Shown: positions 27,890-64,000 of the stretch, piece after piece
Layout: each line of letters opens with the position of its first letter
How positions within the stretch are numbered: position 1 is the first letter of the stretch
Virus record (IMG/VR): IMGVR_UViG_3300020196_000003
DNA length: 64,000 nt
DNA from: a virus
Reading direction: 5' to 3' (one strand)
Made by a program: the position numbers and the translations under genes
The notes under the pieces: model-generated
What the model saw: only the letters and a program-made list of their open reading frames with translations
Told to the model about the DNA's origin: nothing
The model's database searches: none

Positions 27890-28732
27890 TCAACAGATAT
27901 AAGTAGAATCTTGCATTACACCATTAAGAATTAAAAATACGTTATAACTTCCACCCTGCCACATAACAAAATAACCCGTATCTTCCGTAGAAAAACAAGT
28001 TTTGTCATTTGAATACAGAAGGTCTCCAACGATCAATTGCTGACTATTAGTATATCTGTCATAGTATCCATTTACACTATCAGTCCCTGCTTCCAAACCA
28101 TTGAGGGCTAAACAGGCTAATATGGTGTTATTTCGGAAGTCACCAAAATTTGTTGTACTATAAACAAGTTGATTATAAAACTGATGTACACAAACAGGTT
28201 GATTCGGTGTCTGTGTGGGAGTTGGGGTTAAAGTTGGTGTCGGAGTAACAGTCATGGTTGGTGTAACACTTATTTCTGGTTCATTAGTTGGTGTGGGTGT
28301 TGGTGTTGGAAATGGGGTTGTACAACAACTATACTCTAAAGTATAACAAGGATTATAAAGGATATCAATCGAGTTAAAACTTTCAACAACATTTATATAT
28401 AGATTTTCTCTAACAGGTAGCACTAAAGTTCCCGTTTCATTAATAAAAACAAATTGACCCTCATACCTACCTATTTTCGAAGTGTCTTGAGGCGTAAATT
28501 TGTAATATATATAAAACTCGGCCGAAGCATTAGGATCCATTTCTAACTTTTCTACAAAACCAGCACTTTTAGTTAAAATTTTTGGAATTCCATTTTCGGT
28601 ACTCACCATTGAAAAAAAAACAGATGAGGTTTCAATAAATTTCATCATAGAATCAAAATCTTGCGTCCCGTTTTTGACAACTTGCATTTTGAGTAAAGGT
28701 AAACTTGTATTTTGTCCTATTGTGAATTCCAT
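27890..28732 (-). CDS. BppU-like N-terminal domain, Pro/Thr linker and variable C-terminal domain (paralog 2)
   Basis: Start reassigned to MEFTIGQNTSLPLLKMQVV (28732), preceded by the TATTTAT motif; paralogous to 28770-29813; PTPTPT tract. Confidence 0.65.
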   Translation of the reverse strand: MEFTIGQNTSLPLLKMQVVKNGTQDFDSMMKFIETSSVFFSMVSTENGIPKILTKSAGFVEKLEMDPNASAEFYIYYKFTPQDTSKIGRYEGQFVFINETGTLVLPVRENLYINVVESFNSIDILYNPCYTLEYSCCTTPFPTPTPTPTNEPEISVTPTMTVTPTPTLTPTPTQTPNQPVCVHQFYNQLVYSTTNFGDFRNNTILACLALNGLEAGTDSVNGYYDRYTNSQQLIVGDLLYSNDKTCFSTEDTGYFVMWQGGSYNVFLILNGVMQDSTYIC

Positions 28733-28769
28733 CCGAACTTTTTTAATAAATACCTTGTTTTTAATTTCA

Positions 28770-29813
28770 CTAAGGACAAATACCCCCCACACAATTGTTA
28801 ATTCCACCACTTACTGAGATGAAATCGTAATGTTGAGTAAATGCACCACAAAACGTTTGAGAACCGTTGAAAGGTAACGTTATAGCAACAGTATTTCCAC
28901 TACAATTTACGTAGATAGAATTAAGTACATTGTTTTGTGTTTTTGTGTATGTGAAGCATTTACAACCAAATGGAGATCCACATTGGTGAGAATTTATTAC
29001 TTGACTATAATTACCAAACATACCACTGTACTGACCGACGTATACGATGGTGTTTGGTAAAAACGGAACCCCATTTCTTTTCAATACTCTAAACCAAGCA
29101 CCATTCGTAGCAAATGAGTATGTGTCAAAATTGGGTGTTGCCCAAAGGGTTTGACTAATTGTTAATGCAGACATTACGGGTGTATATGCCGTTACATATT
29201 CATCACTTTCTGAGCAAGCAAGGTTTGAGTTGCCAGACCCAAAAGCTATAACCCACTCTGTGTATCCAGTTGGTTGTGGGCCATTAGTTGTTGTGGTTGT
29301 TGTCACAGGCATTAATGTAGTTGTTGTGGTAATTGGTGATACTGTGGTCGTAGTTGTTGTTACTGGAGGTATTGGTGGTTGTGGTGTTAATCCACCAAAA
29401 CAACACGGATAATCTACAACATAACAAGACTGAAATTCAAAATCGTTGATTACAAAACTTTCAGTAACATTAATATATATTTCTTGATTGATAGGTAGTG
29501 TTAAAATACCTGTTTCATTCCGAAACAAAAACTGACCTTTGTATCTTCCAACTTTTTTTGTGTCGAACGGTGTAAATTGATAATAAACATAATATTGATC
29601 TTCAGTTATTAAATCCACAGGTTCTTTTTTCATAAATCCTGCTGGCCTCGAGACTATTCTTGGAACATCAGTTGTGATATCAACCATAGAAAAAAATACG
29701 TCAGTGCCCTCCAAAAACCTCATCGATCTGTTGTAGTCATTTCTTCCATCCTTGATAACATTAATCTTCAACACAGGAAGTGTTGCGTTTTTTCTGATAA
29801 AAAATTCCATCAA
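28770..29813 (-). CDS. BppU-like N-terminal domain, Thr-rich linker and Cys-containing C-terminal domain (paralog 1)
   Basis: MEFFIRKNATLPVLK..YYQFTPFDTKKVGRYKGQF..LTLPI; VTTTTTT tracts. Confidence 0.65.
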   Translation of the reverse strand: MMEFFIRKNATLPVLKINVIKDGRNDYNRSMRFLEGTDVFFSMVDITTDVPRIVSRPAGFMKKEPVDLITEDQYYVYYQFTPFDTKKVGRYKGQFLFRNETGILTLPINQEIYINVTESFVINDFEFQSCYVVDYPCCFGGLTPQPPIPPVTTTTTTVSPITTTTTLMPVTTTTTTNGPQPTGYTEWVIAFGSGNSNLACSESDEYVTAYTPVMSALTISQTLWATPNFDTYSFATNGAWFRVLKRNGVPFLPNTIVYVGQYSGMFGNYSQVINSHQCGSPFGCKCFTYTKTQNNVLNSIYVNCSGNTVAITLPFNGSQTFCGAFTQHYDFISVSGGINNCVGGICP

Positions 29814-29837
29814 ATCTTTTAACTATAAATACTCCAA

Positions 29838-31505
29838 TTAAAATTCTTTTCTTAAATTAGATTCATAGAAATCAAACCTGTTGTGTTCGGTTGGAGTTAA
29901 AAGTAAGAGGCCTGGATATATTTTATTTTTAATTGTTTGTTTAAAACAATGAGACATTAAAGTTTGTTCATATGGAAAATCAAATTTGGTTTCAATATAA
30001 CATTTATAATTTCCCTCTTTGGACAAAATAATGGGCCAATTTGATAAATAAATTTCTCCAGTAGCATATGCTAACCCATCATAAGATTTTATATTTTTAT
30101 ATTCTAAATATGGTGAGTTTGCCGACTGACCGTGTTTAGGTAGTTGTTGATTGTTAGGCCAATGTTTTGATCTGAAATCTTGATCAACATTATACCATGA
30201 CCATTGTCTTTCATGACTTCCATAAAACTCTGTAAAGTTTAATTTTAAAAAATCAAAATTTTCTTTTTTTATAATTTGTAAAAGTTTTTTATACAGATGT
30301 CTAACATTTCTATTAAAACCATTTTTACAAACCGATTCACCACCAGTGTAAAAAAACATGTCATCTTCAAAAAACAAATAATATTCCATATCTGAGTTTT
30401 CGAAATGTTCGGCCACCCAAACTCTACCCCCCGTTATACCTATATTATCTGTTTTTATGTGTTCGAATCCATATCTATCACAAAGATCAATATACTTAGA
30501 GGTTGTTGAGTAATCTGTTGAGTTATTTAGAAGAAATTTATTAGTCTTTTCGATAAAATCTGAATCATATAATAACATTGAGTTTATTAACGCTTCGAAT
30601 TGTTTGGGGCTGTTGAAACTTATAATATATAAACCAACTTGACCATTAGTAATAGTCTTTATTATTCGTTCTTTCTTAAGTGATTTAATTGTTATATTAT
30701 TGTTTTTTAAATCTTCAAAAAATTTATATAAAAGACCATTGGGTTCAATTTCAACATAATCAATTATTGTTGGGTTGTTGTATAATAATATTGAGAACAA
30801 ACTTTCTTCAGTCCCCATCAATCCTCTTTCAATCGTGGATTTCATAAGATTATAATAAAGAGTATTCATTTGTCTAATCAGACTGACGGGACCACCAAAA
30901 AAACCACCACGACAGACTTTATTGACTCTTGTACCTGTGATCTGATCCATTTTTTCAATATCAAACCCATGAATTTCTTTATCTGCCTGATAAGGAAAGC
31001 AAACAAACGTAAAGTTATCAAAAAGACTTTCTATTTTTGGTAATACCTTGTCATGCGTTAAATAACCCATTTGAACGGTATTTGCCAATCCAGCATCTAT
31101 CCAATACAATTTTTCTGAATTAAATTTATCAAGCAAAACGGCGTCATGTAAAATAAACATTTTAGACATTACAATAGGGTTATACATTTCAAGTTTCGCT
31201 TGAGTTGAATCCTTTAACCAACCTGCTAAATTATACCACGTAGGATTCGTTCTTATTTTTTGAATTGAATTAAAAAATTCATTATTTTTGAACCAATTTA
31301 GATCACGCAAAATAAATTGCGTGTTTGAATCATTTCTTTTTTCCATAACAAATTTCTGAAGTTCTACATCTCCAAAAATTATCATATTATTATCAACCTT
31401 TAGAAGTTGTTCGAATTTACTTAAATAGTGGTCAAAAGATCTTGACCAATTTTCAGATAAGTTTCCTCTACCTATATCCCATAAACCTGTTACTAATGTT
31501 ATCAT
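29838..31505 (-). CDS. HtrL/YibB-like glycosyltransferase fused to a GT-A domain
   Basis: ITLVTGLWDIGR, YWIDAG, GGFFGG, GTEESLF; second domain with FFEDDM. Confidence 0.7.
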   Translation of the reverse strand: MITLVTGLWDIGRGNLSENWSRSFDHYLSKFEQLLKVDNNMIIFGDVELQKFVMEKRNDSNTQFILRDLNWFKNNEFFNSIQKIRTNPTWYNLAGWLKDSTQAKLEMYNPIVMSKMFILHDAVLLDKFNSEKLYWIDAGLANTVQMGYLTHDKVLPKIESLFDNFTFVCFPYQADKEIHGFDIEKMDQITGTRVNKVCRGGFFGGPVSLIRQMNTLYYNLMKSTIERGLMGTEESLFSILLYNNPTIIDYVEIEPNGLLYKFFEDLKNNNITIKSLKKERIIKTITNGQVGLYIISFNSPKQFEALINSMLLYDSDFIEKTNKFLLNNSTDYSTTSKYIDLCDRYGFEHIKTDNIGITGGRVWVAEHFENSDMEYYLFFEDDMFFYTGGESVCKNGFNRNVRHLYKKLLQIIKKENFDFLKLNFTEFYGSHERQWSWYNVDQDFRSKHWPNNQQLPKHGQSANSPYLEYKNIKSYDGLAYATGEIYLSNWPIILSKEGNYKCYIETKFDFPYEQTLMSHCFKQTIKNKIYPGLLLLTPTEHNRFDFYESNLRKEF

Positions 31506-32260
31506 TATCTTTCTAAATAACCAGTTTTATACCAAGTTTTTGAGTTGTCGTCAACACCTTCGTTTCTAAACCAAAAACAACCACCTCTATCATTTGGTAA
31601 ATGACCTACAATAGGGAAGGATTCAACCCTAGCTCTAAAATCATTATCTTTATTATAATTCATCACAATTTTTTGTATGTTATGTTTTCCAAGATAAGCA
31701 GATAAAACTATATCATCACTCCAAGATTTACCAACAAATTCATCAAAAAAATCTTGTTTAAAAAAACCATTTTTATATGACACTGTTTTATATCCTTCTA
31801 AAATTTTAACTCTTGTATCTTTTTGAACTGTTGTACAAAAATGACAACTACCATCAAAAGAAGATATACCAGCAAACCCTAACGCAGAATCTGGATATTC
31901 TTTTCTTTTTTCAATATGGTATTCTATAAAACCATCGATATATTCTAGATCATCATCAACTGTTATTAAAATTGTATCATCATTCCTATCTAATCTCATT
32001 ATGGTTGGTAATATTTTTGTTAAAGACCCATAATCTTCAGTTCTAAAAATCTTTAATTTTTCATCTTTAATTGATTCTAACCATTTAGGTATTACATATT
32101 TTTCATTTGATTTTTTACAAATATCTGGAATATTCAAATGGATTTCATAGTTGTTATATGATAAACCCAACAATCTTTCAATAACTGGTTTTAACCCACC
32201 GACAGATCTATTTATTCTGTTTGGTATTGTTGTTAGTGTTAGTATTACTTTTTGATTCAT
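31505..32260 (-). CDS. GT-A fold glycosyltransferase
   Basis: Likely start MNQKVILTLTTIPNR (32260); DYGSLTKILP, ITVDDD, SDDIVLS. Confidence 0.7.
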   Translation of the reverse strand: MNQKVILTLTTIPNRINRSVGGLKPVIERLLGLSYNNYEIHLNIPDICKKSNEKYVIPKWLESIKDEKLKIFRTEDYGSLTKILPTIMRLDRNDDTILITVDDDLEYIDGFIEYHIEKRKEYPDSALGFAGISSFDGSCHFCTTVQKDTRVKILEGYKTVSYKNGFFKQDFFDEFVGKSWSDDIVLSAYLGKHNIQKIVMNYNKDNDFRARVESFPIVGHLPNDRGGCFWFRNEGVDDNSKTWYKTGYLER

Positions 32261-32264
32261 TAAA

Positions 32265-33509
32265 TTATAAATTTCCAACAATCCTTTCACACCAATCTTT
32301 TGAAATTGAGTGAGGCCAAACAACCCAATAGGAAGGTATTTTTGTCGTTGGGAATTCTCTCCATATTTTACCATAACCATCAGGATCATTTTTAATTCTT
32401 ACAATTTCATTTGCGTCGGCATCTTGTCTAAAAATTGTTTCATGTTCTTTATCGTGAAATGCCACGACCCAAAAGTCATAATCGGTTTCGGTAACTTTAT
32501 TTAAATCCAAATCAATACAATGTTTAAAAATTGTTGAAAATGTTTTTTTCCATGATTCCTCGTTTTCAAAATTGTACGTGTTTGGTGGATATTTTTTATC
32601 CAAAGTTTCTTGTTGAACCGCTCTTGTTCTGAATAATATTCCTGCGTATTTTTCATAGTCTTGTACAGTCCTTTCAGACCCAAACCATAATGAATAATTA
32701 CCATCAAAAGTTTCACCATCTATACCTAATAACTGTCTGTTTTTAATGTGACAAGCAGTGTTTCTCAAATGCCAATCTTTATCATCATCCCATTGTTTTG
32801 TTCTACCTTTTCTTGTGTATTCATGCCAAATCAAAACTTTATGTGGATGAAATAAGTCATAACCATGTGTATATGATCTTACCGTAATTGAAATTTCCTC
32901 ACCATGAAAATAAAATTCAGGATCGTGTTGGACTTCAATTGAAAATTGTCCTATCGTGAAACAATAGTGTGCGGAATAAAATCTAGCAGGAATAGGTTCT
33001 TTCATTTCCCTCCATCCTGGTATAATTTCGGGTAAAAAGAATACAACTCCTTCAGGTGTAAATCTATCGAATACCATTCTCCACGGTTCCATAATGCGAG
33101 CGGCGGGATCATTATCAGGATCAAATGATGATACATATCCTGTAAGTAATGGTTTTTTATGCCCTTTCTTTTGAAGTTGTTTAATCATTTTAATCATTTC
33201 TTCGTCCCAATTTTTTTCGAATCTCATATGAGAATCAATTTGTAAAGTATATTCTTCTCCACCATACATTTGTTGGACTTGGTGTCTAGCCCAACAAACA
33301 CCTTTCGATTCCGTATATGGAATGTTTAATATTTTGAATCTTTTGTCTTTGGAATATTTTGATAAATCATCAAAACCATCTTCAGGATGAAATTGTCTTG
33401 CAATACCGAATCTAAGATTTCTTGGTTTTTTTGCATTTTCCAACATGTTTTCAATTGTTTGGATCAATTGTGGGTCTCTGTACGACGCGATTTGTACAAA
33501 TATTTTCAT
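32265..33509 (-). CDS. GT60-family (Skp1/polypeptide alpha-GlcNAc transferase-like) glycosyltransferase
   Basis: IFVQIASYRDPQL, GVCWAR, LQIDSHMRF, FHGEEI..R.YTHGYD..P, WHEY signatures. Confidence 0.85.
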   Translation of the reverse strand: MKIFVQIASYRDPQLIQTIENMLENAKKPRNLRFGIARQFHPEDGFDDLSKYSKDKRFKILNIPYTESKGVCWARHQVQQMYGGEEYTLQIDSHMRFEKNWDEEMIKMIKQLQKKGHKKPLLTGYVSSFDPDNDPAARIMEPWRMVFDRFTPEGVVFFLPEIIPGWREMKEPIPARFYSAHYCFTIGQFSIEVQHDPEFYFHGEEISITVRSYTHGYDLFHPHKVLIWHEYTRKGRTKQWDDDKDWHLRNTACHIKNRQLLGIDGETFDGNYSLWFGSERTVQDYEKYAGILFRTRAVQQETLDKKYPPNTYNFENEESWKKTFSTIFKHCIDLDLNKVTETDYDFWVVAFHDKEHETIFRQDADANEIVRIKNDPDGYGKIWREFPTTKIPSYWVVWPHSISKDWCERIVGNL

Positions 33510-33874: not shown

Positions 33875-34003
33875 CTACCCGACTATTTCAATAACTTTTT
33901 GATATACCTGAAGAACTGACGGGTGACATTCAAATTTTTCTTTTCTTTCTAAACAACCAACCAAAGAAGGAATACCTTGTATTGATCCCCACTCTCTAAC
34001 ACC
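33875..34003 (-). pseudogene. Orphan C-terminal 42 codons of a GT9-like gene
   Basis: GVREWGSIQGIPSLVGCLERKEKFECHPSVLQVYQKVIEIVG* is 29/42 identical to the end of 43768-44757 (encoded at 44572-44697 on the opposite strand); no start codon. Confidence 0.9.
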
Positions 34004-34184
34004 AACAGTAACTCAAACGGCTAGTTTGACACCGAGTCATACACCAACGCCAACAGTTACACCATCATACCATCCATGTGGATATCAACCAATTATTGTA
34101 ATACCAAGCCCAAGTAATTATAGGACACCAACACCAACACTAACACCGAACATCAACCCGTGTTTGTTGAGAAGTCTTCAATGA
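33996..34184 (+). pseudogene. Orphan C-terminal fragment of a Pro/Thr-rich protein
   Basis: LTPTVTQTASLTPSHTPTPTVTPSYHPCG..TPTPTLTPNINPCLLRSLQ*; in-frame stop at 33924 and no ATG; same architecture as the C-terminus of 45422-45844. Confidence 0.75.
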
Positions 34185-34258
34185 CAAAAATAATAAATTA
34201 CAATAATTATAATGATATATAGATTTAGTTTCCAAGTCATAAATATTTATAGTTTAAG

Positions 34259-37200
34259 ATGCCACAATATAATAGATTAACTGATAGGTCGAGAGTTTCT
34301 GCGGTCACACTGAATGACATTATACATGTTGTTGTTACTGGTGATACATCACAGAGTCCTCAGGGATCATCATATTTTGCACCTTTAAGTGATTTACAAT
34401 CAATATTAAGCGGATCAAGTGGTACCAATGGTACTTCAGGAACAAATGGAACTAGCGGTACTAATGGTACCTCAGGAATTAATGGGACTAGTGGTTCTTC
34501 AGGAACTTCTGGCTCATCAGGAATAAGTGGAACATCGGGTTCTTCAGGAACAAGTGGTGTTTCAGGTACCAATGGATCAAGTGGTTCAAGCGGTACAAGT
34601 GGAATTAATGGTACATCAGGATCTTCAGGTATTGATGGTAGTAGTGGAACTTCAGGTTCAAGTGGAACCAATGGTACTAGTGGTACAAATGGTTTTGACG
34701 GAACATCAGGATCATCAGGAACTAGTGGTTCTTCAGGATTAAGTGGAACAGATGGTACGTCGGGAAGTTCTGGAACAAGCGGAACAGATGGTACTAGCGG
34801 TACGAATGGAACAAGCGGAACAGATGGTAGTTCAGGAACTAGCGGAACTTCAGGTTCAAGCGGTATTGCTGGGACTAGCGGAACTTCAGGTTCTTCAGGG
34901 ATAGACGGAACAAGTGGTACTTCAGGTTCTTCAGGTATTGACGGCACTTCAGGAACATCGGGATCAAGCGGAACAAGTGGTACTAATGGAACTGATGGGT
35001 CTAGCGGTACGGATGGAACTAATGGGTCAAGTGGAACTTCAGGAACCAACGGTACAGATGGAAGTAGTGGAACATCAGGTTCTAGTGGAACAAATGGTAC
35101 TAGCGGGTCATCCGGATCTAGCGGTACATCAGGGTCAAGTGGAACTAATGGTACTAGCGGGTCTTCAGGTACATCAGGAACTAACGGTACTAATGGAACA
35201 AGTGGAAGTAGCGGTACGGACGGAACATCAGGGTCTTCAGGAACTAATGGGACATCAGGTACAAATGGTACATCAGGAACCAATGGAACTTCAGGAACGA
35301 ACGGTACAAATGGTACATCAGGAACCAATGGAACTTCAGGGACAAGTGGAAGTAGCGGTACCGACGGAACATCAGGGTCTAGCGGTACTAGCGGAAGTTC
35401 GGGAACAAATGGAACATCAGGGTCTAGCGGATCAAGTGGTAGTTCAGGTTCTAGCGGTACAGACGGTACTTCAGGTACTTCAGGTTCAAGTGGTATAGAC
35501 GGTACATCAGGTACATCAGGGAGCTCAGGCTCAAGCGGAACAAGTGGTTCTTCAGGCTCTAGTGGAACAAATGGTTCTTCAGGAACCTCAGGAACTAGCG
35601 GCTCTTCAGGTACAGATGGTACAAGTGGAACAAGTGGTTCATCAGGGACTAGCGGTTCTTCAGGAACAAGTGGTTCATCAGGAACTAGCGGTTCTTCAGG
35701 AACAAGTGGTTCATCAGGTACCTCAGGTTCTAGTGGAAGTTCAGGTACAGATGGTACATCAGGAACAAGTGGTTCTTCAGGTTCTAGTGGAAGTTCAGGT
35801 ACAGATGGTACATCAGGAACAAGTGGTTCATCAGGAACAAGTGGAAGTTCAGGTACAGATGGTTCATCAGGAACAAGCGGTTCATCAGGTACTTCAGGAA
35901 GTTCAGGTTCATCAGGTACTTCAGGAAGTTCAGGTTCATCAGGTACTTCAGGAAGTTCAGGTTCATCAGGTACTTCAGGAAGTTCAGGTTCATCAGGAAC
36001 AGATGGTACAAGTGGTACAAGCGGCTCATCAGGAACAAGCGGTTCATCAGGTACATCAGGGAGCTCAGGTTCAAGCGGAACAAGCGGTTCATCAGGTACT
36101 TCAGGAAGTTCAGGTTCATCAGGTACTTCAGGAAGTTCAGGTTCATCAGGAACAGATGGTACTTCAGGTACATCAGGTTCTAGTGGCTCATCGGGTTCCT
36201 CTGGAACAAGTGGTTCTTCAGGAACCTCAGGTTCTAGCGGCTCATCGGGTACTGATGGCACGTCTGGTACAAGTGGATCATCAGGAACAGATGGTACAAG
36301 TGGATCATCAGGAACAGATGGTACAAGTGGTACATCAGGAAGTTCAGGTACAAGTGGTTCTTCAGGTTCATCAGGAACTTCAGGAAGTTCAGGCTCCTCA
36401 GGTACAAATGGTACTTCAGGGACTGATGGGACTAGCGGAACATCAGGTTCTTCAGGAACTAGCGGAAGCTCAGGTTCTTCAGGAACTAGCGGAAGCTCAG
36501 GTTCTTCAGGAACTAGCGGAAGCTCAGGTTCATCAGGCACTTCAGGTAGCTCAGGTTCTTCAGGAACTAGCGGAAGCTCAGGTTCTTCAGGAACTTCAGG
36601 AAGTTCAGGTTCTTCAGGTACAAATGGTACTTCAGGGACTGATGGGACTAGCGGAACATCAGGTTCTTCAGGAACTAGCGGAAGCTCAGGTTCATCAGGC
36701 ACTTCAGGTAGCTCAGGTTCTTCAGGAACTAGCGGAAGCTCAGGTTCTTCAGGAACTTCAGGAAGTTCAGGTTCTTCAGGAACTTCAGGAACTTCAGGTA
36801 CAAGTGGAACAAATGGAACCAGCGGAACTAATGGTACTTCAGGGACAAATGGTACTAGCGGTAGTTCAGGGACAAATGGTACATCAGGTACTAATGGAAC
36901 TAGCGGGACAAATGGGACAAGCGGAACTAGTGGGACCAACGGCACATCAGGGTCTAGTGGAACAAATGGAACTTCAGGCTCAAGCGGTACCAATGGAACA
37001 TCAGGAAGTTCGGGCACGAATGGTACAAGTGGGTCTTCAGGCACTAACGGTACGTCAGGAACTAATGGAACCTCAGGAACGAACGGTACGAATGGTACTT
37101 CAGGAACAAATGGAACATCAGGTACTAATGGAACAAATGGTACTAGCGGTACAAATGGAACATCAGGTACAAACGGAACATCAGGTACCAACGGTACTAG

Positions 37201-38953: not shown

Positions 38954-38957
38954 TAAT

Positions 38958-39473: not shown

Positions 39474-39478
39474 AAATT

Positions 39479-54839: not shown

Positions 54840-54845
54840 AATAAT

Positions 54846-55469: not shown

Positions 55470-56278
55470 TTGTAACTTCGTATTTGATGGGTGGGTTAGG
55501 AAATCAAATGTTCCAAATCGCCAAAGCAAAAACGGAAGGATTTAAAAATAACATTGATGTAGTTTTTAGACCTATTTCATTTATTCCTATGGAGGGAAAT
55601 CAACCAACAAAATATATGAATAACATTTTTAGGAATTTAAAATTTGATAACATTACAGAACCACTAATAAGAATATCAGAACCATCTTGGTCGTATAATA
55701 AAATTGAACCGTTGTATCATACGTCCACTGAGTTTTTTGGTTACTTTCAAAGTAGTAAAAATTTTGGGGATTTTAAAAATCAAATTAAAAGTTTATTCCA
55801 ACCAACTGAAGAGTTTATAAATAAAATAAAAAAATTATATCCTTTTGTTTTCAAAAATAACTCAATATCCATTCATGTTCGTAGGGGTGATTACTTAGGT
55901 GTTAGTGATATTTTACCTGTGGTTGATAAATCATATTTAAATGAGTGTCTTAGTCTAATTGATAAAAAAGGTTATATTTTTATATTCTCTAATGACAAAG
56001 ATTGGGTCGAGAAGAATCTAAATTACCCCAATTCAACCATTGTTAATAAATTAGATGATTATGAAGAATTATGGATGATGAGTTTATGTAATCATAATAT
56101 TATGTCTAATTCTTCATTTTCTTGGTGGGGATCTTATCTTAATTTAAATCACAATAAAAAAGTATTTGTACCATCAATTTGGTTTGGGCCTAGAGGGGAA
56201 AAACACTACCAAGATATATACGAAAATAAATGGATAAAAATAAATGTTAAATATGAAAACGGAAAACTCATTGTCTAA
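55466..56278 (+). CDS. GT11 alpha-1,2-fucosyltransferase-like protein
   Basis: GGLGNQMFQ, GYFQS, HVRRGDY, SNSSFSWWGSYL. Confidence 0.9.
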   Translation: MIVTSYLMGGLGNQMFQIAKAKTEGFKNNIDVVFRPISFIPMEGNQPTKYMNNIFRNLKFDNITEPLIRISEPSWSYNKIEPLYHTSTEFFGYFQSSKNFGDFKNQIKSLFQPTEEFINKIKKLYPFVFKNNSISIHVRRGDYLGVSDILPVVDKSYLNECLSLIDKKGYIFIFSNDKDWVEKNLNYPNSTIVNKLDDYEELWMMSLCNHNIMSNSSFSWWGSYLNLNHNKKVFVPSIWFGPRGEKHYQDIYENKWIKINVKYENGKLIV

Positions 56279-57029
56279 TACATCAATCTCTGACGAAAAC
56301 AACTTTAAAAACATATGTAAATTTGCATGTGAAGATAATTATATTTTTAATAATTTTAAATCTAACCCTTCATTTAATCAGATATTAGAACACACAACAT
56401 ATGAACAAGGAGTTGGGTATATAAACGAAATAGAAAAATTAACAAAGATAGATATGTCGTTAATTGAAAAATTTAAAACTAACGATATACAAGGTAACCC
56501 AAAACAGTTTTGGTATAAAGAACCTTATGGTAATGTATCCCCATCAACATTAAGGTATATTAAGGTTTTAAACGATTTAATCACATTATTCGGTAACCTT
56601 GACGATATGTCAATTGTGGAAATAGGTGTGGGTTACGGAGGACAATCAAAAATTATACAAGATCATTTTAATATAAAAGAATATAACTTTGTTGATTTAC
56701 CTGAAGTTTTGGGACTCACAAAAAAATATTTAGATATGTACGATTACAAAAATCTTAATTTTTTAAATTTTAATAATCTACCAAATAAAAAATACGATTT
56801 GATAATATCAAATTATGCTATTACTGAGTGTAGTAAAGAAATGCAAGACATTTACATCGAAAAGATAATTTATAATTCAAAGCATTGTTATATCACCGGA
56901 AACGATATTGGTGATCATTTTAATTTAAAAAATTACAATAAAGATGAGTGGGGTAAAAAAATACCTAACTCAATTTTTACAGAAGAAAAACCATTAACTC
57001 ACCATAAAAACTATATATTATATTTTTAA
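56253..57029 (+). CDS. Putative sugar O-methyltransferase
   Basis: SPSTLRYIKV, IVEIGVGYGGQ, VDLPEV, ISNYAITE. Confidence 0.75.
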   Translation: MKTENSLSNTSISDENNFKNICKFACEDNYIFNNFKSNPSFNQILEHTTYEQGVGYINEIEKLTKIDMSLIEKFKTNDIQGNPKQFWYKEPYGNVSPSTLRYIKVLNDLITLFGNLDDMSIVEIGVGYGGQSKIIQDHFNIKEYNFVDLPEVLGLTKKYLDMYDYKNLNFLNFNNLPNKKYDLIISNYAITECSKEMQDIYIEKIIYNSKHCYITGNDIGDHFNLKNYNKDEWGKKIPNSIFTEEKPLTHHKNYILYF

Positions 57030-57032
57030 ATT

Positions 57033-57827
57033 ATGGATATTTTTAATATGAAAAGTCAAATTTTTCTACACAATGGGTCATCAACTGTTAACCAAACACC
57101 GAAGTATTTTAAATGGGATTTTTTTAATGGTACAGGTGAGTATGATTTCTATATCGATGGTGGGATTATTAATGGTATTAATAATAGATTAGACGGTAAT
57201 AAAAAAGTTTTATGGACACTAGAATCACCGTACTTTAATAATGGGGTTTTTGATTATATAAAAAATAATTTAAAATTAGTTTTAGACGTTTTTGATTATA
57301 TTTTCACATATAATGAGGAGTTATTATCGCTTAGTCAAAAGTTTTATTTTGTACCCGCAATGGGGTCATGGATAAAAGAGCCTATGATGTGTGATAAAAA
57401 AAAATTAGTATCAATGGTAACGTCAAATAAAACTTTTACAGAGCAACAAAAACTTAGGTTTGATTTCGCCAACAACCATAAAGATAAGATTGATGTGTAT
57501 GGTAGAGGATTTAATGAAATACATAATAAAGAAGAAGGTTTATGTGATTATATGTTTTCCGTTTGTATTGAGAACGCAACAATGGACACATATTTTACTG
57601 AAAAAATATTAGACTGTTTTGCAACCGGAACAATACCAATTTATAAAGGGTCTAAAAAAATAATTGATTATTTTGATAAAGATGGTATTCTTTTTTTAGA
57701 TGAGATAAATATTAACGATTTAAGTGAAGATTTATATCTGTCAAAAATAGAGTCAGTTAAAAAAAATCTATATTTATGTAAAGAATTTATATTACCTGAA
57801 GATATTATATATAAAAAAATAAAATAA
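57033..57827 (+). CDS. GT10 alpha-1,3-fucosyltransferase-like protein
   Basis: YMFSVCIEN..YFTEKILDCFATGTIPIYKG. Confidence 0.85.
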   Translation: MDIFNMKSQIFLHNGSSTVNQTPKYFKWDFFNGTGEYDFYIDGGIINGINNRLDGNKKVLWTLESPYFNNGVFDYIKNNLKLVLDVFDYIFTYNEELLSLSQKFYFVPAMGSWIKEPMMCDKKKLVSMVTSNKTFTEQQKLRFDFANNHKDKIDVYGRGFNEIHNKEEGLCDYMFSVCIENATMDTYFTEKILDCFATGTIPIYKGSKKIIDYFDKDGILFLDEININDLSEDLYLSKIESVKKNLYLCKEFILPEDIIYKKIK

Positions 57828-57828
57828 A

Positions 57829-58518
57829 ATGAAAGTAGTTAGTTTTTCACTTTTTGGTTCGGATCCACTATACACCATAGGTGCTGTTAAGAACTCTGAA
57901 TTAATGTTTAAAATATTTCCGGAATGGAAAATGTGGGTTTACCATGACGACACAGTACCAAATGAAATATTAGATAAATTAAAAAACAATAATGTTAAAC
58001 TAATAAAATCCGAAAATAATGGGTTTTATAGGTCTATGTGGAGATTCTACCCCTGTGGAAATAAATCTGTAGAATACTTTATATCTAGAGATGCTGACTC
58101 AAGGATTTCTCTAAGAGATAGGGCATCGGTATATGAATGGATAGATTCTGGAAAAGATTTTCATATAATTAGAGACCACCCAGTTGGTCATTCGTGGGTT
58201 ATTAATGCGGGTATGTGGGGTTCTAAAGGTGGGTCGATAGATATAATACCCTTGATAGACCGATATAATAATAATCCCCACGAAAAGTTTATTGACCAAA
58301 TATTTTTAAGGGATATCATTTACCCGATGACTAAAACATCTAGATTAGTGCACGATGAGTACTTTAATTATGAAGGGGATTGTCGTAAAATAATGAGAGA
58401 TAGAAAAATAGATGACTTCGCATTTATTGGTGAATCTATAGACATTAACGATCAATCAAGGTATACTACAAATCCAGGGGATCAAAGAAAAACAATAATA
58501 GAAAGATACACAAATTAA
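57829..58518 (+). CDS. Putative glycosyltransferase (GT-A-like)
   Basis: SFSLFG, MWRF, SRDADSR, FHIIRDHP, AGMWG, DQIFL. Confidence 0.6.
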   Translation: MKVVSFSLFGSDPLYTIGAVKNSELMFKIFPEWKMWVYHDDTVPNEILDKLKNNNVKLIKSENNGFYRSMWRFYPCGNKSVEYFISRDADSRISLRDRASVYEWIDSGKDFHIIRDHPVGHSWVINAGMWGSKGGSIDIIPLIDRYNNNPHEKFIDQIFLRDIIYPMTKTSRLVHDEYFNYEGDCRKIMRDRKIDDFAFIGESIDINDQSRYTTNPGDQRKTIIERYTN

Positions 58519-58523
58519 AGAAA

Positions 58524-59218
58524 ATGGATTTTACTTTTGGTATAGTGACTAATAAACATATAAGTGATTTGTTTGATGTGATACACTCAATAGACCAACA
58601 AAAAATCCCTAATTATGAAATTATAATAGTAGGTGGGGATATGGGGTCATATAACCATCCAAAAATTAAACATATACCGTTTAATGAATCTTCAAAAACA
58701 GGATGGATAACAAAAAAAAAAACTTAATAACTCAAAATTCTATTTTTGAAAACATAGTTTTTCTACATGATTATATCACATTTTCAGATGGCTGGTACAG
58801 TGGTCAGATATTATCAGGTAATTATTTTGACATAAGAATGGATATTATATTAAATAAAGACGGTAGTAGATTCAGAGATTGGTGTCTATGGCCTCACAAT
58901 CAAATAAATCACGGACAATCAACTGAAGACATAATTAAAAGTTCTGCACTATTACCATATGAAATAAATAATTTAAATCAATTCCAATATATATCGGGAA
59001 GTTACTGGATTTCAAAAAAGAAAGTGATGGTAGAGTTTCCACTAAATGAGGATTTGACATGGGGAGAGGCGGAAGACGTGGAATGGTCTAAAAGAGTGAG
59101 GTTACATTATACATTTACCATGAATACTAAATCTATAGTACAATTTAAAAAACAAAAATCAGTGGTTTTTAACCTCACAACAAATGAAATAATAAAAAAA
59201 TTAGATGAATTAGTATGA
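58524..59218 (+). CDS. GT2-like glycosyltransferase split by a frameshift in an A11 tract
   Basis: 58524-58727 (YEIIIVG..GWITKKK) continues in another frame as NLITQ..FLHDY..EDVEWS; one extra A at 58712-58722 joins the two halves. Confidence 0.7.
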
Positions 59219-60570
59219 TAAAGTTAATAATATTTGATCTAGACGGTGTTTTAGTAGATGCTAAAATTATACATTTTAATTCTTTAAATGATGCGCTAGG
59301 ACCTAATTACTCTATAGATTGGTCGGAACATTTAAGTAAATACGACGGATTAAAAACTAACCAAAAATTAGAGATGTTAACAAAAGAAAAAGGATTACCA
59401 ATTGAGGATTATGACAAGGTTTGGAATGAAAAACAAAGATTAACATTATTAAAGTTAGGGTTGTTGTCTCCGTCAATTGAGTTACAAAATTGTATGAAAA
59501 AATTATCGAATGATGGTTATAAAATCGCATGTTGTAGTAATAGTATTCGTAAGACCGTATTGACGGTACTATCTAAATTGGGGATTATCGAATATTTTGA
59601 TTTAATTCTATCTAATGAAGATGTTAAAAATTCAAAACCTCATCCTGAAATTTATTGGAAAGCCGTTTCTATGATGGGATATCTACCTGAAGAAACTTTA
59701 ATTGTTGAGGATTCACCATATGGTTTATTGGCCGCTAGTAGATCTAAATCGAACATAATGAGGGTAAAGTCACCAAAGGAAGTTACCTACAATAATATAA
59801 ATAAACACCTTGGAGAGACAAAAATGAACACAACACTTAAATGGAAAAATGATAAATTAAATATTTTAATTCCAATGGCCGGCGCAGGTAGTAGATTTGA
59901 ACAAGCAGGATACACCTTCCCAAAACCACTAATTGAGGTTAAAAATAAACCTATGATCCAAGTAGTAGTTGAAAATTTAAATCTTGATGCGAATTATATA
60001 TATGTGGTACAAAAATCACATAGAAAAAAATACAATTTAGACATATTATTAAATTTGATAACACCCAATTGTACTATTGTTGAAACTAAAGGATTAACTG
60101 ATGGTGCAGCATGTACAGCACTATTAGCGAAAGAATTTATAAATAACGAGAATCCATTATTCTTTGCAAATTCAGATCAATTTGTTGAGTGGGATTCAAA
60201 TGAGTTTATGTATAAAATGCAAGAGACTGACGCCGATGGTGGTATTGTCACCTTCACCGCAACTCACCCAAAATGGTCTTTTGCTAAAGTTGATGAAAAT
60301 GGTTTGGTAACTGAAGTGGCAGAAAAAAAACCAATATCTAACACTGCGACTGTAGGATATTATTATTGGAAACATGGTTCGGATTTTGTTAAATATGCAG
60401 AACAAATGGTAAATAAAAATATAAGAGTAAATAAGGAATTTTATGTTTGTCCTGTTTTTAATGAAGCAATCAAAGACAATAAAAAAATTAGAACATTTAA
60501 TATAGAAAAAATGTGGGGATTAGGGACACCTGAAGATTTAAAAAATTACTTAGAAAATTTTAAAAAATAA
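59215..60570 (+). CDS. HAD phosphatase fused to a sugar-phosphate nucleotidyltransferase
   Basis: FDLDGVL, KPHPEIY, VEDS; IPMAGAGSRF..PKPLI, EKK, GLGTPEDL. Confidence 0.85.
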   Translation: MIKLIIFDLDGVLVDAKIIHFNSLNDALGPNYSIDWSEHLSKYDGLKTNQKLEMLTKEKGLPIEDYDKVWNEKQRLTLLKLGLLSPSIELQNCMKKLSNDGYKIACCSNSIRKTVLTVLSKLGIIEYFDLILSNEDVKNSKPHPEIYWKAVSMMGYLPEETLIVEDSPYGLLAASRSKSNIMRVKSPKEVTYNNINKHLGETKMNTTLKWKNDKLNILIPMAGAGSRFEQAGYTFPKPLIEVKNKPMIQVVVENLNLDANYIYVVQKSHRKKYNLDILLNLITPNCTIVETKGLTDGAACTALLAKEFINNENPLFFANSDQFVEWDSNEFMYKMQETDADGGIVTFTATHPKWSFAKVDENGLVTEVAEKKPISNTATVGYYYWKHGSDFVKYAEQMVNKNIRVNKEFYVCPVFNEAIKDNKKIRTFNIEKMWGLGTPEDLKNYLENFKK

Positions 60571-60572
60571 AA

Positions 60573-61112
60573 ATGAATATCGTCATCCCAACATATAATA
60601 AACATTATCAATACAACATTAATTTTTTAGATTCATTTGATTTATACTGTTTAGATAAAAAAAACGATTATGTAATGTTAATTGTAGGTGAGGTTGATTG
60701 CCGAGTTCACCTACCAAAACAAATTCAATTGCAAAGTAGACCAATTGATGAGGTAATTATAGAATGTGTTGATAGATTTTTTAGAACCTATTTAGACCTA
60801 AAAGAAAGGGGATATAATGTAATTGGTTGGGGTGGCCACCCATCAACCATATCAGGACCTAGCGAAAACCCCTCAGAACCTATTATTGGGGATTGTCGTT
60901 TTAGAAATACAATAAGTTTAAAATGGGACTCATATATAGAATCTTTGTTTATTGAAAACAACATACCGCACGTTTCAATAATTAAAGACCTTATAGGTAT
61001 TGACGGACTAACTAAAATGAATTACTTTATGGATTATTGTCATTTAAAACATGACTTAGTTAAAGAAATCATACAAACAAAATTTAAAGAAATTGGAATC
61101 TATGTCTACTAA
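60573..61112 (+). CDS. Probable deletion chimera: glycosyltransferase N-terminus joined to an SGNH-hydrolase C-terminus
   Basis: MNIVIPTY.. start joined at an A8 run to GEVDCRVH..DYCHL; the catalytic GDS block is missing. Confidence 0.5.
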   Translation: MNIVIPTYNKHYQYNINFLDSFDLYCLDKKNDYVMLIVGEVDCRVHLPKQIQLQSRPIDEVIIECVDRFFRTYLDLKERGYNVIGWGGHPSTISGPSENPSEPIIGDCRFRNTISLKWDSYIESLFIENNIPHVSIIKDLIGIDGLTKMNYFMDYCHLKHDLVKEIIQTKFKEIGIYVY

Positions 61113-61800
61113 AAAAATATTTGTTAAACAACATTTAGGATTGGGGGATAATATTGTCCATAATGGGATGGTAAGGAAGATTTCTGAGGATTACCCTGAA
61201 TATGATATTTACGTACCCGCAAAATCACACAATATAGATAATGTTAAATTTATGTATCGGGACATCAATAAGATTAAAGTTGTTGAGATAAATAACGATA
61301 ATGATATGGATAGGTACACATTAACGAATAGATTTCATAAAATAATTTCATCGTTTCTAATAGGTCAAAAAACATTTGATTATTCTAAGGACTTTGATGA
61401 CTCATTTTATATGATGGCCGGATATGACCCAAAAATCAAACACGAATATTTTCATATCGAGAGGGACATTAATGAGGAAAATAGGGTTTACCAAGAATTA
61501 ATATTAAATAATAATATTAGTAATTATGTTTTTATACACGAAAAAAAAGATGAAAACATACTAATAGATAGACGTAAAATTAATATTGATTTGCCAGTAA
61601 TTTATGCGGATAGAAAATACAAAACTTTTTCATTATTAAAGGTAATTGAAAACGCAAAAGAATGTCACATAATTAGTAGTTCTTTCCTTTCACTACTAAT
61701 GTGTTATAAACTTAATAATAACGTTTTTGCCCATATGTATTCCGATAGGGTTGAACTTAGCGAATATATTAGTAAAAATGGCATAAAAGTAATTAAATAA
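61102..61800 (+). CDS. GT9-like / GT-B glycosyltransferase
   Basis: HLGLGDNIVHNG, IENAKECHIISSSF. Confidence 0.6.
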   Translation: MSTKKIFVKQHLGLGDNIVHNGMVRKISEDYPEYDIYVPAKSHNIDNVKFMYRDINKIKVVEINNDNDMDRYTLTNRFHKIISSFLIGQKTFDYSKDFDDSFYMMAGYDPKIKHEYFHIERDINEENRVYQELILNNNISNYVFIHEKKDENILIDRRKINIDLPVIYADRKYKTFSLLKVIENAKECHIISSSFLSLLMCYKLNNNVFAHMYSDRVELSEYISKNGIKVIK

Positions 61801-61821
61801 ATAAACAATTAAATAAATAAA

Positions 61822-62130
61822 ATGGCTGATACTTTAGGTAATGTTATCGACAAATTAGTTACCGTTGATATGAAGATGTGGACTAATCAAGAGTTATTAT
61901 ATGAAATAAGAAGAATGACTTTTGATGAATATAAAGAAAAATATTTTAACGATGAAGAGGGAGCTCAAAAACTTTGGGAAACCTTAAAGAAAGCGACCGA
62001 TCTGAATGTTCAAAGAAACCAACTAATCAATGAAGTTGACGAAAAATTAATCGAACTAATTAACGCTAAGTTTTCAGGTGAGGATCTTGATAACGGTAAA
62101 TTTTTACAACGATCTCACAAGACATACTAA
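61822..62130 (+). CDS. DUF4254-like helical protein
   Basis: TLGNVIDKL..DMKMW..Q..LNVQRNQLINEVDE. Confidence 0.6.
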   Translation: MADTLGNVIDKLVTVDMKMWTNQELLYEIRRMTFDEYKEKYFNDEEGAQKLWETLKKATDLNVQRNQLINEVDEKLIELINAKFSGEDLDNGKFLQRSHKTY

Positions 62131-62376
62131 TATGAAACAATCCCATTTAGTCTTGCCGAGTATCAAGGATTACAAATTTTTAACGATCACATATCATATG
62201 GAAATATAGATTTTATGAAAAAATATTCTGATTTATGGAACTATATGCACAGAATATATATAGAACATAATTTTGACATATCACATGCTGAAAAAGTTTT
62301 GAAATTTTATTTAGAAAATTATGTCACAACAGAAATAAACACAACAAGCAATATAAATTATAATATATTAAAATAA
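62131..62376 (+). pseudogene. C-terminal remnant of a glycosyltransferase-like gene
   Basis: Open frame IPFSLAEYQGLQIFNDHISYGNIDFMKKYSDLW..HAEKVLKFYL; the ATG at 62132 is out of frame. Confidence 0.5.
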
Positions 62377-62380
62377 CATT

Positions 62381-63271
62381 ATGGAAAAGGATTTTTTATT
62401 TTTTAACTACTCTTGGGTGTGGGGATCAACAACTTACTTTAAATATTTTGAAAAGATGGGTCATTCTATTGATATTGTTGATGAGAATACCATTCATTAT
62501 TTTAACCCAACCGTTAGTTATAAAAATGTGGTTGTTTATTTGCACGAACCGAATCAATTGCGTAGAATAAATTCTTTATTAGATAATCAACTGAGAAATA
62601 GTTTCCTTATCCAACACGACGATACCGATGAAGAACAATTACAAAGATGGACAATCAGAGAACCTGATATATTCATGCAAAGAGAATTGACAGATAATAC
62701 ACATATAACAACAAAATCACCTGTTATACCATTTCATTTCCCAATGAATAGTATATATGATGAAAATATAACAGATAAACCATATGATATATCTTTTATT
62801 GGTAACATGACAAATCCAAGAAGAAGACCTTTTGTTGATTACATTATTAATTTATCACAAACGACTTTAAGTCATCTTAATTGGTATATAGATGTTAATG
62901 GAGCAAATTACAAACCAGGATTTGCAACTGAAAACTTTAGAAATATTACAAACCAATCTAAAATTGGTCTCCATTATTTTGGTAATTCCTACGACTCAAT
63001 TAGGATTTGGGAAATCCTATCTTGTAAAACCGCATTATTAATGCCAAAAATGAGAAGTCATTCCGTTGACTCAAACCACATGGAGTTGAGTAACTATGAA
63101 ATATTTAATGATGATTACTCCAACCTTGAGGAAAAAATAAATTATTTGTTAGAAGACAATAGATATCTTGATTTAGGGTTAAGAGGTCATGAGGAATTTA
63201 AATCAAACCATAATATTGATAAATGTTGTGAATACTATTATAATTCAGTAATGAAAGTTGCCAGAAAATAA
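62381..63271 (+). CDS. GT-B glycosyltransferase (CgeB-like C-terminus)
   Basis: YDISFIG..RR, SKIGLH..DSIRIWEILSC. Confidence 0.75.
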   Translation: MEKDFLFFNYSWVWGSTTYFKYFEKMGHSIDIVDENTIHYFNPTVSYKNVVVYLHEPNQLRRINSLLDNQLRNSFLIQHDDTDEEQLQRWTIREPDIFMQRELTDNTHITTKSPVIPFHFPMNSIYDENITDKPYDISFIGNMTNPRRRPFVDYIINLSQTTLSHLNWYIDVNGANYKPGFATENFRNITNQSKIGLHYFGNSYDSIRIWEILSCKTALLMPKMRSHSVDSNHMELSNYEIFNDDYSNLEEKINYLLEDNRYLDLGLRGHEEFKSNHNIDKCCEYYYNSVMKVARK

Positions 63272-63283
63272 CTTACTGAATTT

Positions 63284-64000
63284 ATGATAAAAATCTATGA
63301 ACCTTATCTAAATAAAAAAACATTATCTTACGCTCACGAAGCGTTAGATTCTACTTGGATCTCATCTCAAGGTTATTATTTAGATGCTGCAAAAGAAAAA
63401 TTGAAATCAATTTTAAATGTTAAATGGATTGTATTAACAAATAATGGTACCACGGCAACTCATTTATTGTCAAAATCATTAATCCATAAAAACCCTAACA
63501 TCAATAACATTATTTGCCCTAATAATGTTTATGTCGCCGCTTGGAATTCATTTTTATATGATAATCATTTTAATTTAAAACCGATTGATACCGACATAAA
63601 AACTTGGAATTTTAACGAAGATTTAATCAATCCTAAAAAAAACGACGCCATTTTAGTTGTTCACAATTTAGGTAACATAGTTAATGTACCTAAACTACAG
63701 AATAAATTTAAAAACACTTTAATTGTTGAAGATAATTGTGAGGGATTTTTGGGAAAATACGATGACCATTATTCGGGAACTAAATCACTTTGTTCTTCAG
63801 TTTCTTTTTTTGGTAATAAGACAATAACAAGTGGTGAAGGAGGTTGTTTTATAACAAACGACGATGAAACATTCGAGTATATAAATAACATCAGAAATCA
63901 GGGTCAATCAAGTGAAAAATTTATACATAACAATTTAGGTTATAACTATAGAATGACCAATATACAAGCAGCAATTCTATATGGTCAGTTAGAGATTATG
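63284..64000 (+). CDS. DegT/DnrJ/EryC1/StrS sugar aminotransferase (perosamine synthase-like), partial
   Basis: Runs off the right edge so it is absent from the ORF track; WISSQG, NNGTTATHL, VEDNCE, SFFGNKTITSGEGG (PLP lysine), GYNYRMTNIQAA. Confidence 0.9.
   Translation, partial: MIKIYEPYLNKKTLSYAHEALDSTWISSQGYYLDAAKEKLKSILNVKWIVLTNNGTTATHLLSKSLIHKNPNINNIICPNNVYVAAWNSFLYDNHFNLKPIDTDIKTWNFNEDLINPKKNDAILVVHNLGNIVNVPKLQNKFKNTLIVEDNCEGFLGKYDDHYSGTKSLCSSVSFFGNKTITSGEGGCFITNDDETFEYINNIRNQGQSSEKFIHNNLGYNYRMTNIQAAILYGQLEIM

Follow-up and report, generated by a model that had tools for sequence, protein, structure and literature searches.

We analysed a 64 kb stretch of DNA from an uncultured virus (IMG/VR record IMGVR_UViG_3300020196_000003; the whole 64,000-nucleotide stretch is called the window below) and propose that it encodes two separate, soluble systems with which a phage O-glycosylates its own virion fibres in the cytoplasm of its host, a reading to which we give a probability of roughly 0.6. 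Both systems would start O-glycans on particle proteins before or during assembly. In the first, a glycosyltransferase (GT) domain of the TibC/AAH type would put the first sugar, by homology a heptose taken from host ADP-heptose, on Ser and Thr in the Gly-Thr/Ser-Ser/Asn repeats of a collagen-like fibre; a fused GT4 domain and an adjacent GT9 enzyme would extend the chain, and a fused FkbM methyltransferase would cap it. In the second, a GT60 enzyme, which by homology would attach alpha-GlcNAc to Thr, would initiate glycosylation in the Pro/Thr and poly-Thr linkers of two baseplate-type proteins encoded next to it and perhaps in further Pro/Thr tracts, and an HtrL-like protein may extend the chains. 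A variable downstream island would supply strain-specific nucleotide sugars and outer-chain transferases, and the resulting glycans might serve fibre stability, shielding or adhesion. Because phage particles assemble in the cytoplasm, such a scheme needs soluble transferases that use nucleotide sugars, a description that fits both the BAHT (TibC-like) enzymes and the cytosolic GT60 enzyme (PMC4358343; PMC8724618). An initial annotation made from the letters alone had pointed to virion-protein glycosylation with initiating enzymes from protein-glycosylating families, and the characterised members of both families do act directly on proteins.

The genes of the first proposed system lie together:

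34259–38953, plus strand: collagen-like fibre, 1564 aa, Pfam Collagen (PF01391) E 4e-149
34412–37642, plus strand: unbroken Gly-X-Y (GXY) region of the fibre (aa 52–1128, 1077 residues, 359 triplets), the proposed main acceptor
38570–38950, plus strand: fibre C-terminal domain (aa ~1438–1564), capsid cement/decoration fold in an AlphaFold2 (AF2) model of pLDDT 92.5
38958–40771, plus strand: three paralogous proteins of ~171 aa each, just 3′ of the fibre gene, related by mutual tblastn matches
40772–43717, minus strand: tri-domain enzyme, 981 aa, with a GT4 domain (aa ~190–351), a TibC/AAH-type domain (aa 407–745) and an FkbM methyltransferase domain (aa 797–932)
41483–42499, minus strand: the BAHT (TibC-like) domain of that enzyme, with catalytic Asp and 4-Cys iron finger
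43768–44757, plus strand: stand-alone GT9 protein (heptosyltransferase family), PF01075 E 6e-16, candidate extender
44689–45135, minus strand: enzyme fragment, 148 aa, 47% identical to aa 65–225 of the tri-domain enzyme, at the edge of an inverted cassette

The middle domain of the tri-domain enzyme reads as GT9-type in Pfam, and a phmmer search against the PDB aligned it with residues 40–386 of TibC itself (PDB 4RAP) at E 1e-63 and 219 bits, which bears out the AAH/TibC-like domain called in the initial annotation. The best lipopolysaccharide (LPS) enzyme in the PDB, RfaG, reached E 0.0017 and aligned to the separate GT4 domain. The catalytic Asp110, whose exchange in the D110A mutant leaves TibC inactive (PMC4358343), is kept (‘TLGDLLGW’ of TibC aligned with ‘SLGDTLAW’), as are all four cysteines of the iron finger, Cys339/342/358/370 (CHGC...WCP...FEC aligned with CYGC...WCP...FEC). 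The tip of the TibC beta-hairpin thumb, Phe265/Val266, is Tyr-Met here, a conservative change, and of the N-terminal beta-barrel (TibC residues 1–97) the alignment covers the part from residue 40–49 onwards. Characterised BAHT members hyper-glycosylate Ser of repeat proteins in the cytoplasm (PMC4358343). Pfam scans found no autotransporter domain in the window, and the neighbour of the enzyme is the collagen-like fibre. The stand-alone GT9 gene also adjoins the fusion gene in a relative, L003, and lies ~2 kb from it in another, G007.

To place these genes among relatives, we compared 42 loci around TibC-like homologues, 80 around GT60 homologues and 80 around polymerase homologues, and drew in particular on G007, a close relative that is 97% complete and whose polymerase is 94% identical to that of the window, and on G006, which is complete and distant. 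Among loci with a TibC-like domain of at least 66% identity and enough flanking sequence, a GXY open reading frame (ORF) adjoins the enzyme gene in 10 of 11; in the eleventh, L174, a fibre C-terminus stands at the contig end, and this locus, which had looked like an exception to the pairing, is not one because the contig end cuts the fibre. G002 and G003 show the enzyme gene beside a fibre as well. In G007 the adjoining fibre has 3314 aa and 874 unbroken triplets (L214 6565–16506; ~750 nm if helical) and ends in a Cys-rich, repeated domain unrelated to that of the window, and in L175 and L176 a fibre of more than 3085 aa carries yet another C-terminus. The pairing extends to the distant G005, where an enzyme of 49% identity sits beside a segmented 1934-aa fibre with several GTS segments, and to L180, where a stand-alone enzyme of 42% identity sits beside a 1527-aa GTS/GSS fibre. 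Fibre length among relatives runs from 535 to more than 3300 aa, both termini are exchanged, and the Ser/Thr-rich GXY repeat is the sole shared element. Compared with L003 and G007, the window carries in opposite orientation the cassette of fibre gene, three paralogues, tri-domain enzyme and GT9 (33875–45328), with the enzyme fragment left at one junction. The TibC-like gene is tied to the collagen-like fibre, and the tie is more than inherited synteny, because it survives the inversion of the cassette, a six-fold change in fibre length and the exchange of both fibre termini.

The initial annotation had described a fibre of about 1080 Gly, Ser, Thr and Asn residues, which proves to be a collagen-type repeat, a name it did not use. 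From N- to C-terminus the protein has an adaptor of 51 aa, the 359 GXY triplets, a region of YG repeats and a jellyroll domain. GTS (147), GSS (112), GTN (68) and GTD (20) are the common triplets, with Thr (235) or Ser (112) in the X position and Ser (262), Asn (71) or Asp (25) in the Y position. The region holds 609 Ser and Thr residues and 25 Asp, and not one Pro, Lys, Arg or Glu, so that the residues that usually stabilise collagen, Pro/Hyp and charge pairs, are absent. The repeat is one of the protein, since the underlying DNA repeats are just 65–85% alike. With the 0.286 nm that textbooks give as the rise per residue, 359 triplets make a helix of ~308 nm. Because this helix would have to hold without proline and without charge pairs, we propose that dense glycan stabilises it, probably taking the place of hydroxyproline and hydrating a triple helix of ~0.3 μm. 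The idea draws partly on annelid cuticle collagen, which is stabilised by glycosylated Thr. As a separate observation, the collagen region contains 70 N-x-S/T sequons (GTN-GTS); no N-glycosyltransferase of the HMW1C type turned up in Pfam scans of the window.

The fibre looks virion-borne because its C-terminal domain folds like trimeric capsid cement proteins and because another fibre-like protein has the same N-terminal adaptor. When the C-domain model was compared with 48,161 solved chains, 44 reached Z ≥2, and 12 of the top 13 came from phage capsid or portal-vertex reconstructions, the other being an Adjutor chain from a whole-mycobacteriophage entry. The best matches were HFTV1 (Z 10.1, rmsd 3.0, 113 aa) and Pam3 (Z 9.5, rmsd 3.2, 123 aa), with FCWL1, XM1 and TW1 also among the leaders; the base of the phi29 head fibre gp8.5 matched at Z 5.5–5.9, and the same fold also serves phi29 as autochaperone at the C-terminus of its tail appendage gp12 (Z 6.3). 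By sequence, Phage_cement_2 (PF09956) gave a weak match in 4 of 58 homologues of the domain (best E 4.6e-4), the window domain itself had no Pfam match, and PHROG returned nothing useful. The domain occurs in 9451 protein clusters and, among the full-domain matches listed, forms the C-terminal end of the protein. The 50-aa N-terminus of the window fibre recurs in G007 on an unrelated, 492-aa fibre-like protein, as tail-fibre adaptors do. The modelled fold and the terminal position of the domain favour a capsid-anchored ‘head fibre’, and the gp12 fold and the shared adaptor mean that attachment may instead be of the tail-fibre type; whichever end attaches, the protein is built like a virion fibre. 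The three ~171-aa paralogues downstream are kept in L003 and have no Pfam or PHROG match. We had considered them as cement-like proteins and rejected this, hhalign giving a probability below 1% against the fibre C-domain.

The second proposed system centres on a gene block next to the polymerase gene:

24986–27805: family-B DNA polymerase
27890–28810, minus strand: Ig-N-domain paralogue 2, with the same N-domain as paralogue 1, a (PT)n tract and a variable C-domain
28770–29813, minus strand: Ig-N-domain paralogue 1, with a BppU-type N-domain, poly-Thr (TTTTTT three times) and a Cys-rich variable C-domain, proposed GT60 acceptor
29838–31505, minus strand: HtrL_YibB-like protein, 555 aa, PF09612 E 1.8e-19, adjoining GT60, putative second transferase
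31505–32389, minus strand: 294-aa protein with a ‘TIPNR...DDD’ pattern and no Pfam match, present in some relatives only
32265–33509, minus strand: GT60-family glycosyltransferase, PF11397 E 1.1e-67, 229.5 bits against a cut-off of 21, soluble

The GT60 call of the initial annotation is secure at this score; the GT60 proteins of relatives reach 198–207 bits on the same model, and the gene is present as a single copy in five of five relatives and in none of 14 control bacteria. A PDB sequence search with it found no match. Characterised GT60 enzymes start mucin-type O-GlcNAc on Thr/Ser-rich domains, and one of them is cytosolic (PMC8724618). A hydroxyproline route is unlikely because no prolyl 4-hydroxylase (PF13640) was found in five relatives, two of them near-complete; scans of the window gave none either. 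The ‘TIPNR...DDD’ pattern of the 294-aa protein suggests a resemblance to GT-A enzymes, and a comparison with the GT9 gene showed no similarity.

Across the 80 GT60 loci the block of polymerase, two paralogues, HtrL_YibB-like gene and GT60 recurs with GT60 identities from 83% down to 50%. Most loci have the HtrL-like gene, and roughly two thirds have the paralogues, mainly where GT60 identity is at least about 65%; GT60 and its HtrL-like neighbour thus travel with two Pro/Thr-linker paralogues. These share a 140-aa N-domain, their C-terminal part is hypervariable, and whole proteins range from 166 to 1413 aa. Most of the ~60 distinct homologues hold a 20-aa tract of at least 75% P/T/S, and some have none. 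A model of the N-domain (pLDDT 74.8) found the baseplate proteins of TP901-1, 80alpha and NF5 as its top matches (4v96 Z 8.5, 6v8i 8.3, 9m8o 8.0), with generic Ig domains slightly below at Z 7.6, which is suggestive of baseplate attachment. A GXY ORF lay within 10 kb in only ~12 of the 80 loci, and on this count we rejected a link between GT60 and the fibre. The initial annotation had placed the transferases beside their acceptors and had proposed to look for both initiating enzymes with repeat proteins across related phages; the TibC-like enzyme does keep company with GXY fibres, GT60 and the HtrL-like protein do so with Pro/Thr proteins, and the supposed partnership of GT60 with the fibre did not survive.

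Pro/Thr tracts had been claimed for at least six structural proteins. We find them in six (13173–16523, 27890–28810, 28770–29813, 45422–45844, 45845–48031 and, weakly, 3689–8767), of which the sheath alone is shown to be structural; PHROG returned nothing useful for these proteins. Three lie outside the GT60 block and carry clear tracts:

13173–16523, minus strand: tail sheath, 1116 aa, with SPTPTPS and SPTPTPTP tracts at aa 286–330
45422–45844, minus strand: (PT)n protein, 140 aa, its C-terminal half almost pure (PT)n
45845–48031, minus strand: conserved 728-aa protein with a PTPTPTPTPSPTPS linker

The sheath is unusually long; Pfam covers just its last ~280 residues, and the tracts fall in the N-terminal portion that has no Pfam match. 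In G007 the homologue of the 140-aa protein is encoded directly upstream of the fibre gene. For the 728-aa protein an atlas search gave a LamG-like match, as a lead only. Its homologue in G005 (L210 2645–5527) appears, judged by eye, to end in a papain-like (C1) peptidase-type sequence that the window copy lacks.

The wider inventory of sugar enzymes in the initial annotation was also recovered, and everything that it listed stands where it had placed it, well above chance expectation. Ten further GT domains are present, eight of them above Pfam cut-offs (GT4, GT9, two GT2, GT25, GT11, GT10 and a GT1-like one), the remaining two being the HtrL-like protein and one weak GT4-like match; with them come two methyltransferases (FkbM and NanM-like), a fusion of HAD and nucleotidyltransferase domains and a DegT aminotransferase. 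Most of these lie at the distal end:

50895–52121, plus strand: weak GT4-like protein, 76% identical in G007
53460–54839, plus strand: double GT2 protein, first gene of the variable sugar island, 31% identical to its G007 counterpart
54846–64000, plus strand: strain-specific sugar island, extending past the window end

Besides GT25, GT11, the NanM-like O-methyltransferase, GT10 and the beta-PGM-like HAD with sugar-1-phosphate nucleotidyltransferase, the island holds the GT1-like protein, the DegT/LegC-like aminotransferase and five ORFs without clear family, one of them with a weak formyltransferase-C-like match. Gene order is preserved between G007 and the window from the window start to 54839. 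At the island position (L217 4726–13432, 24.7–33.4 kb) G007 carries GT2 enzymes, a DegT fragment, a BKACE enzyme and a hexapeptide acetyltransferase, followed by PhoH. GT10, GT11, GT25, the NanM-like methyltransferase and the aminotransferase are a strain-specific cassette, because no homologue of the genes at 54846–64000 was found anywhere in G007 and other sugar genes stand in their place. An island of this kind would fit an exposed glycan whose outer chains vary, and the methylated, possibly fucosylated coat of the initial annotation would be a local variant at most.

No product encoded from 27.9 to 64 kb has a transmembrane-like segment, and Pfam, NCBIfam and PHROG scans of the window proteins returned no flippase, polymerase or ligase family. 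Because neither GT60 nor the TibC-like enzyme has a membrane segment, both initiating enzymes should work in the cytoplasm, where virions assemble.

Several observations weigh against virion glycosylation as we have framed it. The phage is uncultured, and the system is known from its sequence alone. Extension and capping by the distal island cannot be a fixed part of it, given that the island is missing from a relative that is 97% complete, and here the initial annotation has to be corrected. None of five relatives, two of them at least 97% complete, encodes GmhA (SIS_2), so that any ADP-heptose would be of host origin; the actual donor of the TibC-like enzyme may be a sugar other than heptose. 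The known acceptors of TibC are beta-helices, not collagen, and the YG-repeat region of the fibre could be the true target. Pro/Thr tracts are commonly plain linkers. Synteny inside one clade is partly inherited, and the loci are not independent observations. The pairing of enzyme and fibre is not universal outside this clade: in G006 a stand-alone homologue of 35% identity sits beside Ser/Thr-rich beta-solenoid fibres, and many TibC-like loci of at most 47% identity have no repeat protein within 10 kb, many such loci lying inside large multi-domain enzymes. One of the G006 beta-solenoid fibres (L215 3614–8158) repeats ‘NTTG’ dozens of times.

The strongest competing account is that the transferases remodel the host surface, altering LPS core, O-antigen or capsule, for instance to block superinfection or adsorption of progeny, and that their position beside the fibre is incidental. 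GT9, GT25, HtrL_YibB, GT10, GT11, the DegT aminotransferase and the nucleotidyltransferase are what LPS and O-antigen clusters usually contain, the distal island is exchanged between close relatives as O-antigen loci are, and no phage heptose pathway was found. We nevertheless consider this account rather improbable, since a window with neither a membrane protein nor a match to a flippase, polymerase or ligase family is poorly suited to it, the TibC-like domain keeps the features of a protein heptosyltransferase and not those of WaaC/WaaF (E 1e-63 for TibC, against E 0.0017 for the best LPS enzyme in the PDB), characterised GT60 enzymes act on polypeptides, and the adjacency of enzyme and fibre outlasts rearrangements. 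Somewhat less probable still is that the fibre and the TibC-like enzyme are the one true pair, that the Pro/Thr tracts are flexible linkers, and that GT60, the HtrL-like protein and the island act on something else, such as a protein or glycan of the host or a small molecule. Linkers of Pro and Thr are common in the clade and occur even in the sheath, and some paralogues do without them; GT60 is core whereas the island is variable, and the GT60 acceptors are proposed from adjacency and family analogy. Set against this are the position of GT60 and the HtrL-like gene beside two paralogues with Pro/Thr tracts in about two thirds of GT60 loci, and the fact that known GT60 acceptors are just such Thr/Pro-rich, mucin-like stretches.

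That the transferases hypermodify phage DNA against restriction is very unlikely. Phage glycosyltransferases often glycosylate DNA, according to work cited in PMC12619734. Genes for a dUTPase and a polymerase lie nearby, and scans of the window returned no base-hydroxymethylase family. To our knowledge neither GT60 nor BAHT enzymes act on DNA, and twelve GT domains, fucosyltransferase types among them, together with methyltransferase types go far beyond any DNA modification system known to us. Cytoplasmic glycosylation of the virion by two systems remains the reading we prefer. A bolder form of it, which we regard as speculative and probably wrong in some part, would have a TibC-type enzyme recruited to hyper-glycosylate a proline-free collagen, the glycan, in place of hydroxyproline or charge pairs, letting a helix of 0.3–0.9 μm fold and persist, so that the particle would bear very long, sugar-coated fibrils whose outer sugars are swapped between strains like O-antigens. 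In this form the system would be a counterpart, in a bacterial virus, to giant-virus fibrils, and would represent a new mode of collagen stabilisation.

The window is part of the genome of an uncultured jumbo myophage with 31% GC (28–35% in the window without the fibre gene). Besides the sheath its contractile tail genes include a tube protein (11675–12163) and a baseplate hub (10830–11600). It belongs to an abundant uncultured clade, because cultured phages are all distant (polymerase identity of 22–33% at most, with phages of Salinibacter and Nostoc), at least 598 polymerase-related stretches occur in IMG/VR, on contigs from lake metagenomes that reach 304 kb, and metagenomes contain upwards of 7000 homologue clusters of the GT60 protein, not one of them with a useful annotation. 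The aquatic ‘moraphages’ described in 2025 have a similar size and habitat and four core glycosyltransferase groups, and their description raises virion glycosylation in general terms (PMC12619734). We did not adopt that identity for the clade: HSP70, a marker in that paper, is absent from two near-complete relatives. Elsewhere in the window, an SNF2-family helicase (18283–21318) contains an insert of the LAGLIDADG homing-endonuclease type or like an intein (LAGLIDADG_3 in Pfam, aa 456–515), which divides its SNF2 domain over aa 206–806, and a 713-aa protein (21365–23506) contains a complete Fe/Mn superoxide dismutase at aa 164–353 between flanks of no recognised family at both ends. Between the structural-type genes and the sugar island, a small protein (49721–50101) has a WYL domain slightly under the Pfam cut-off (21.5 vs 21.8 bits, E 2e-4).

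Glycosylation of phage virions, of giant-virus fibrils and of bacterial collagen-like filaments is already known; new here are the enzyme families, the fusion architecture, a proline-free collagen of extreme length and the organisation in two modules. Phage-encoded virion glycosylation has been shown only in mycobacteriophages, and our proposal, if true, would extend it to an abundant uncultured clade of lake phages. A TibC/AAH-type enzyme would then be in use outside autotransporter adhesins for the first time, and GT60 would have its first phage context. It offers a testable answer to the question of how a collagen helix without proline or charge pairs is stable. The enzyme–substrate pairs are small and soluble and can be tested in E. 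coli without culturing the phage, and if active they could be used to O-glycosylate designed collagen or mucin-like materials densely. Selection may act on the glycan itself, as the exchange of the sugar island suggests.

The closest known parallel to the first system is TibC–TibA and AAH–AIDA-I, with which it shares the homologous catalytic domain, catalytic Asp and 4-Cys iron finger, as well as a soluble cytoplasmic enzyme whose gene sits beside that of a long, Ser/Thr-rich repeat protein destined for the surface. Unlike those enzymes, the window enzyme is phage-encoded and fused to GT4 and FkbM domains, its neighbour is a GXY fibre and not an autotransporter beta-helix, its heptose donor is putative, and the phage has no heptose pathway of its own. 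The arrangement of a GT gene beside a collagen-like filament gene also recalls SgtA–BclA3 of Clostridioides difficile and the glycosylated BclA of the Bacillus exosporium; for SgtA and BclA3 the encoding of the transferase beside its collagen-like acceptor has been proven experimentally (PMC7157674). In BclA systems O-glycans sit on Thr of the G-x-T triplet, and a hairy outer layer is built from the filaments. In contrast to the window, however, SgtA is a GT-A enzyme that uses UDP-GlcNAc, and BclA repeats are Pro-rich (GPT), form much shorter helices and belong to a bacterial spore.

For the second system the comparison is with the GT60 polypeptide alpha-GlcNAc transferases of Dictyostelium and Trypanosoma cruzi, which share strong Pfam membership with the window protein and have Thr/Pro-rich, mucin-like acceptors; the Skp1 GT60 enzyme is soluble and cytosolic, and the window GT60 is apparently soluble too. 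The window enzyme differs in belonging to a bacterial virus, in which no prolyl hydroxylase partner was found and both acceptor and sugar are putative. As a particle component, the fibre resembles phi29 gp8.5 and SPP1 gp12, which are trimeric, capsid-attached fibres. The base of gp8.5 shares the C-domain fold, and gp12 is a predicted collagen-like capsid binder with only about eight triplets; gp8.5 differs in being a helical fibre with an N-terminal base, and we know of no report that either is glycosylated.

As for glycosylated virions, Freeman et al. (cited in PMC12619734) are said to have found in 2023 that mycobacteriophages encode transferases which, in the cytoplasm, add glycans to virion proteins at regions rich in Ser and Thr. 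In that case the sugars are carried at the C-terminal ends of capsid and tail-tube subunits, in phages that infect actinobacteria and have neither a collagen fibre nor a BAHT or GT60 enzyme. In Mimivirus, collagen glycosylation is reportedly on hydroxylysine. Giant viruses differ from the phage in being viruses of eukaryotes and in using different enzyme families, and no hydroxylase was found in the relatives of this phage. Mimivirus collagen is reported to be both hydroxylated and glycosylated (PMC8968730). The likeness to Mimivirus fibrils lies in virus-encoded sugar-nucleotide pathways and transferases that decorate long fibrils at the surface, in collagen-like genes, and in glycan clusters that vary between clades.

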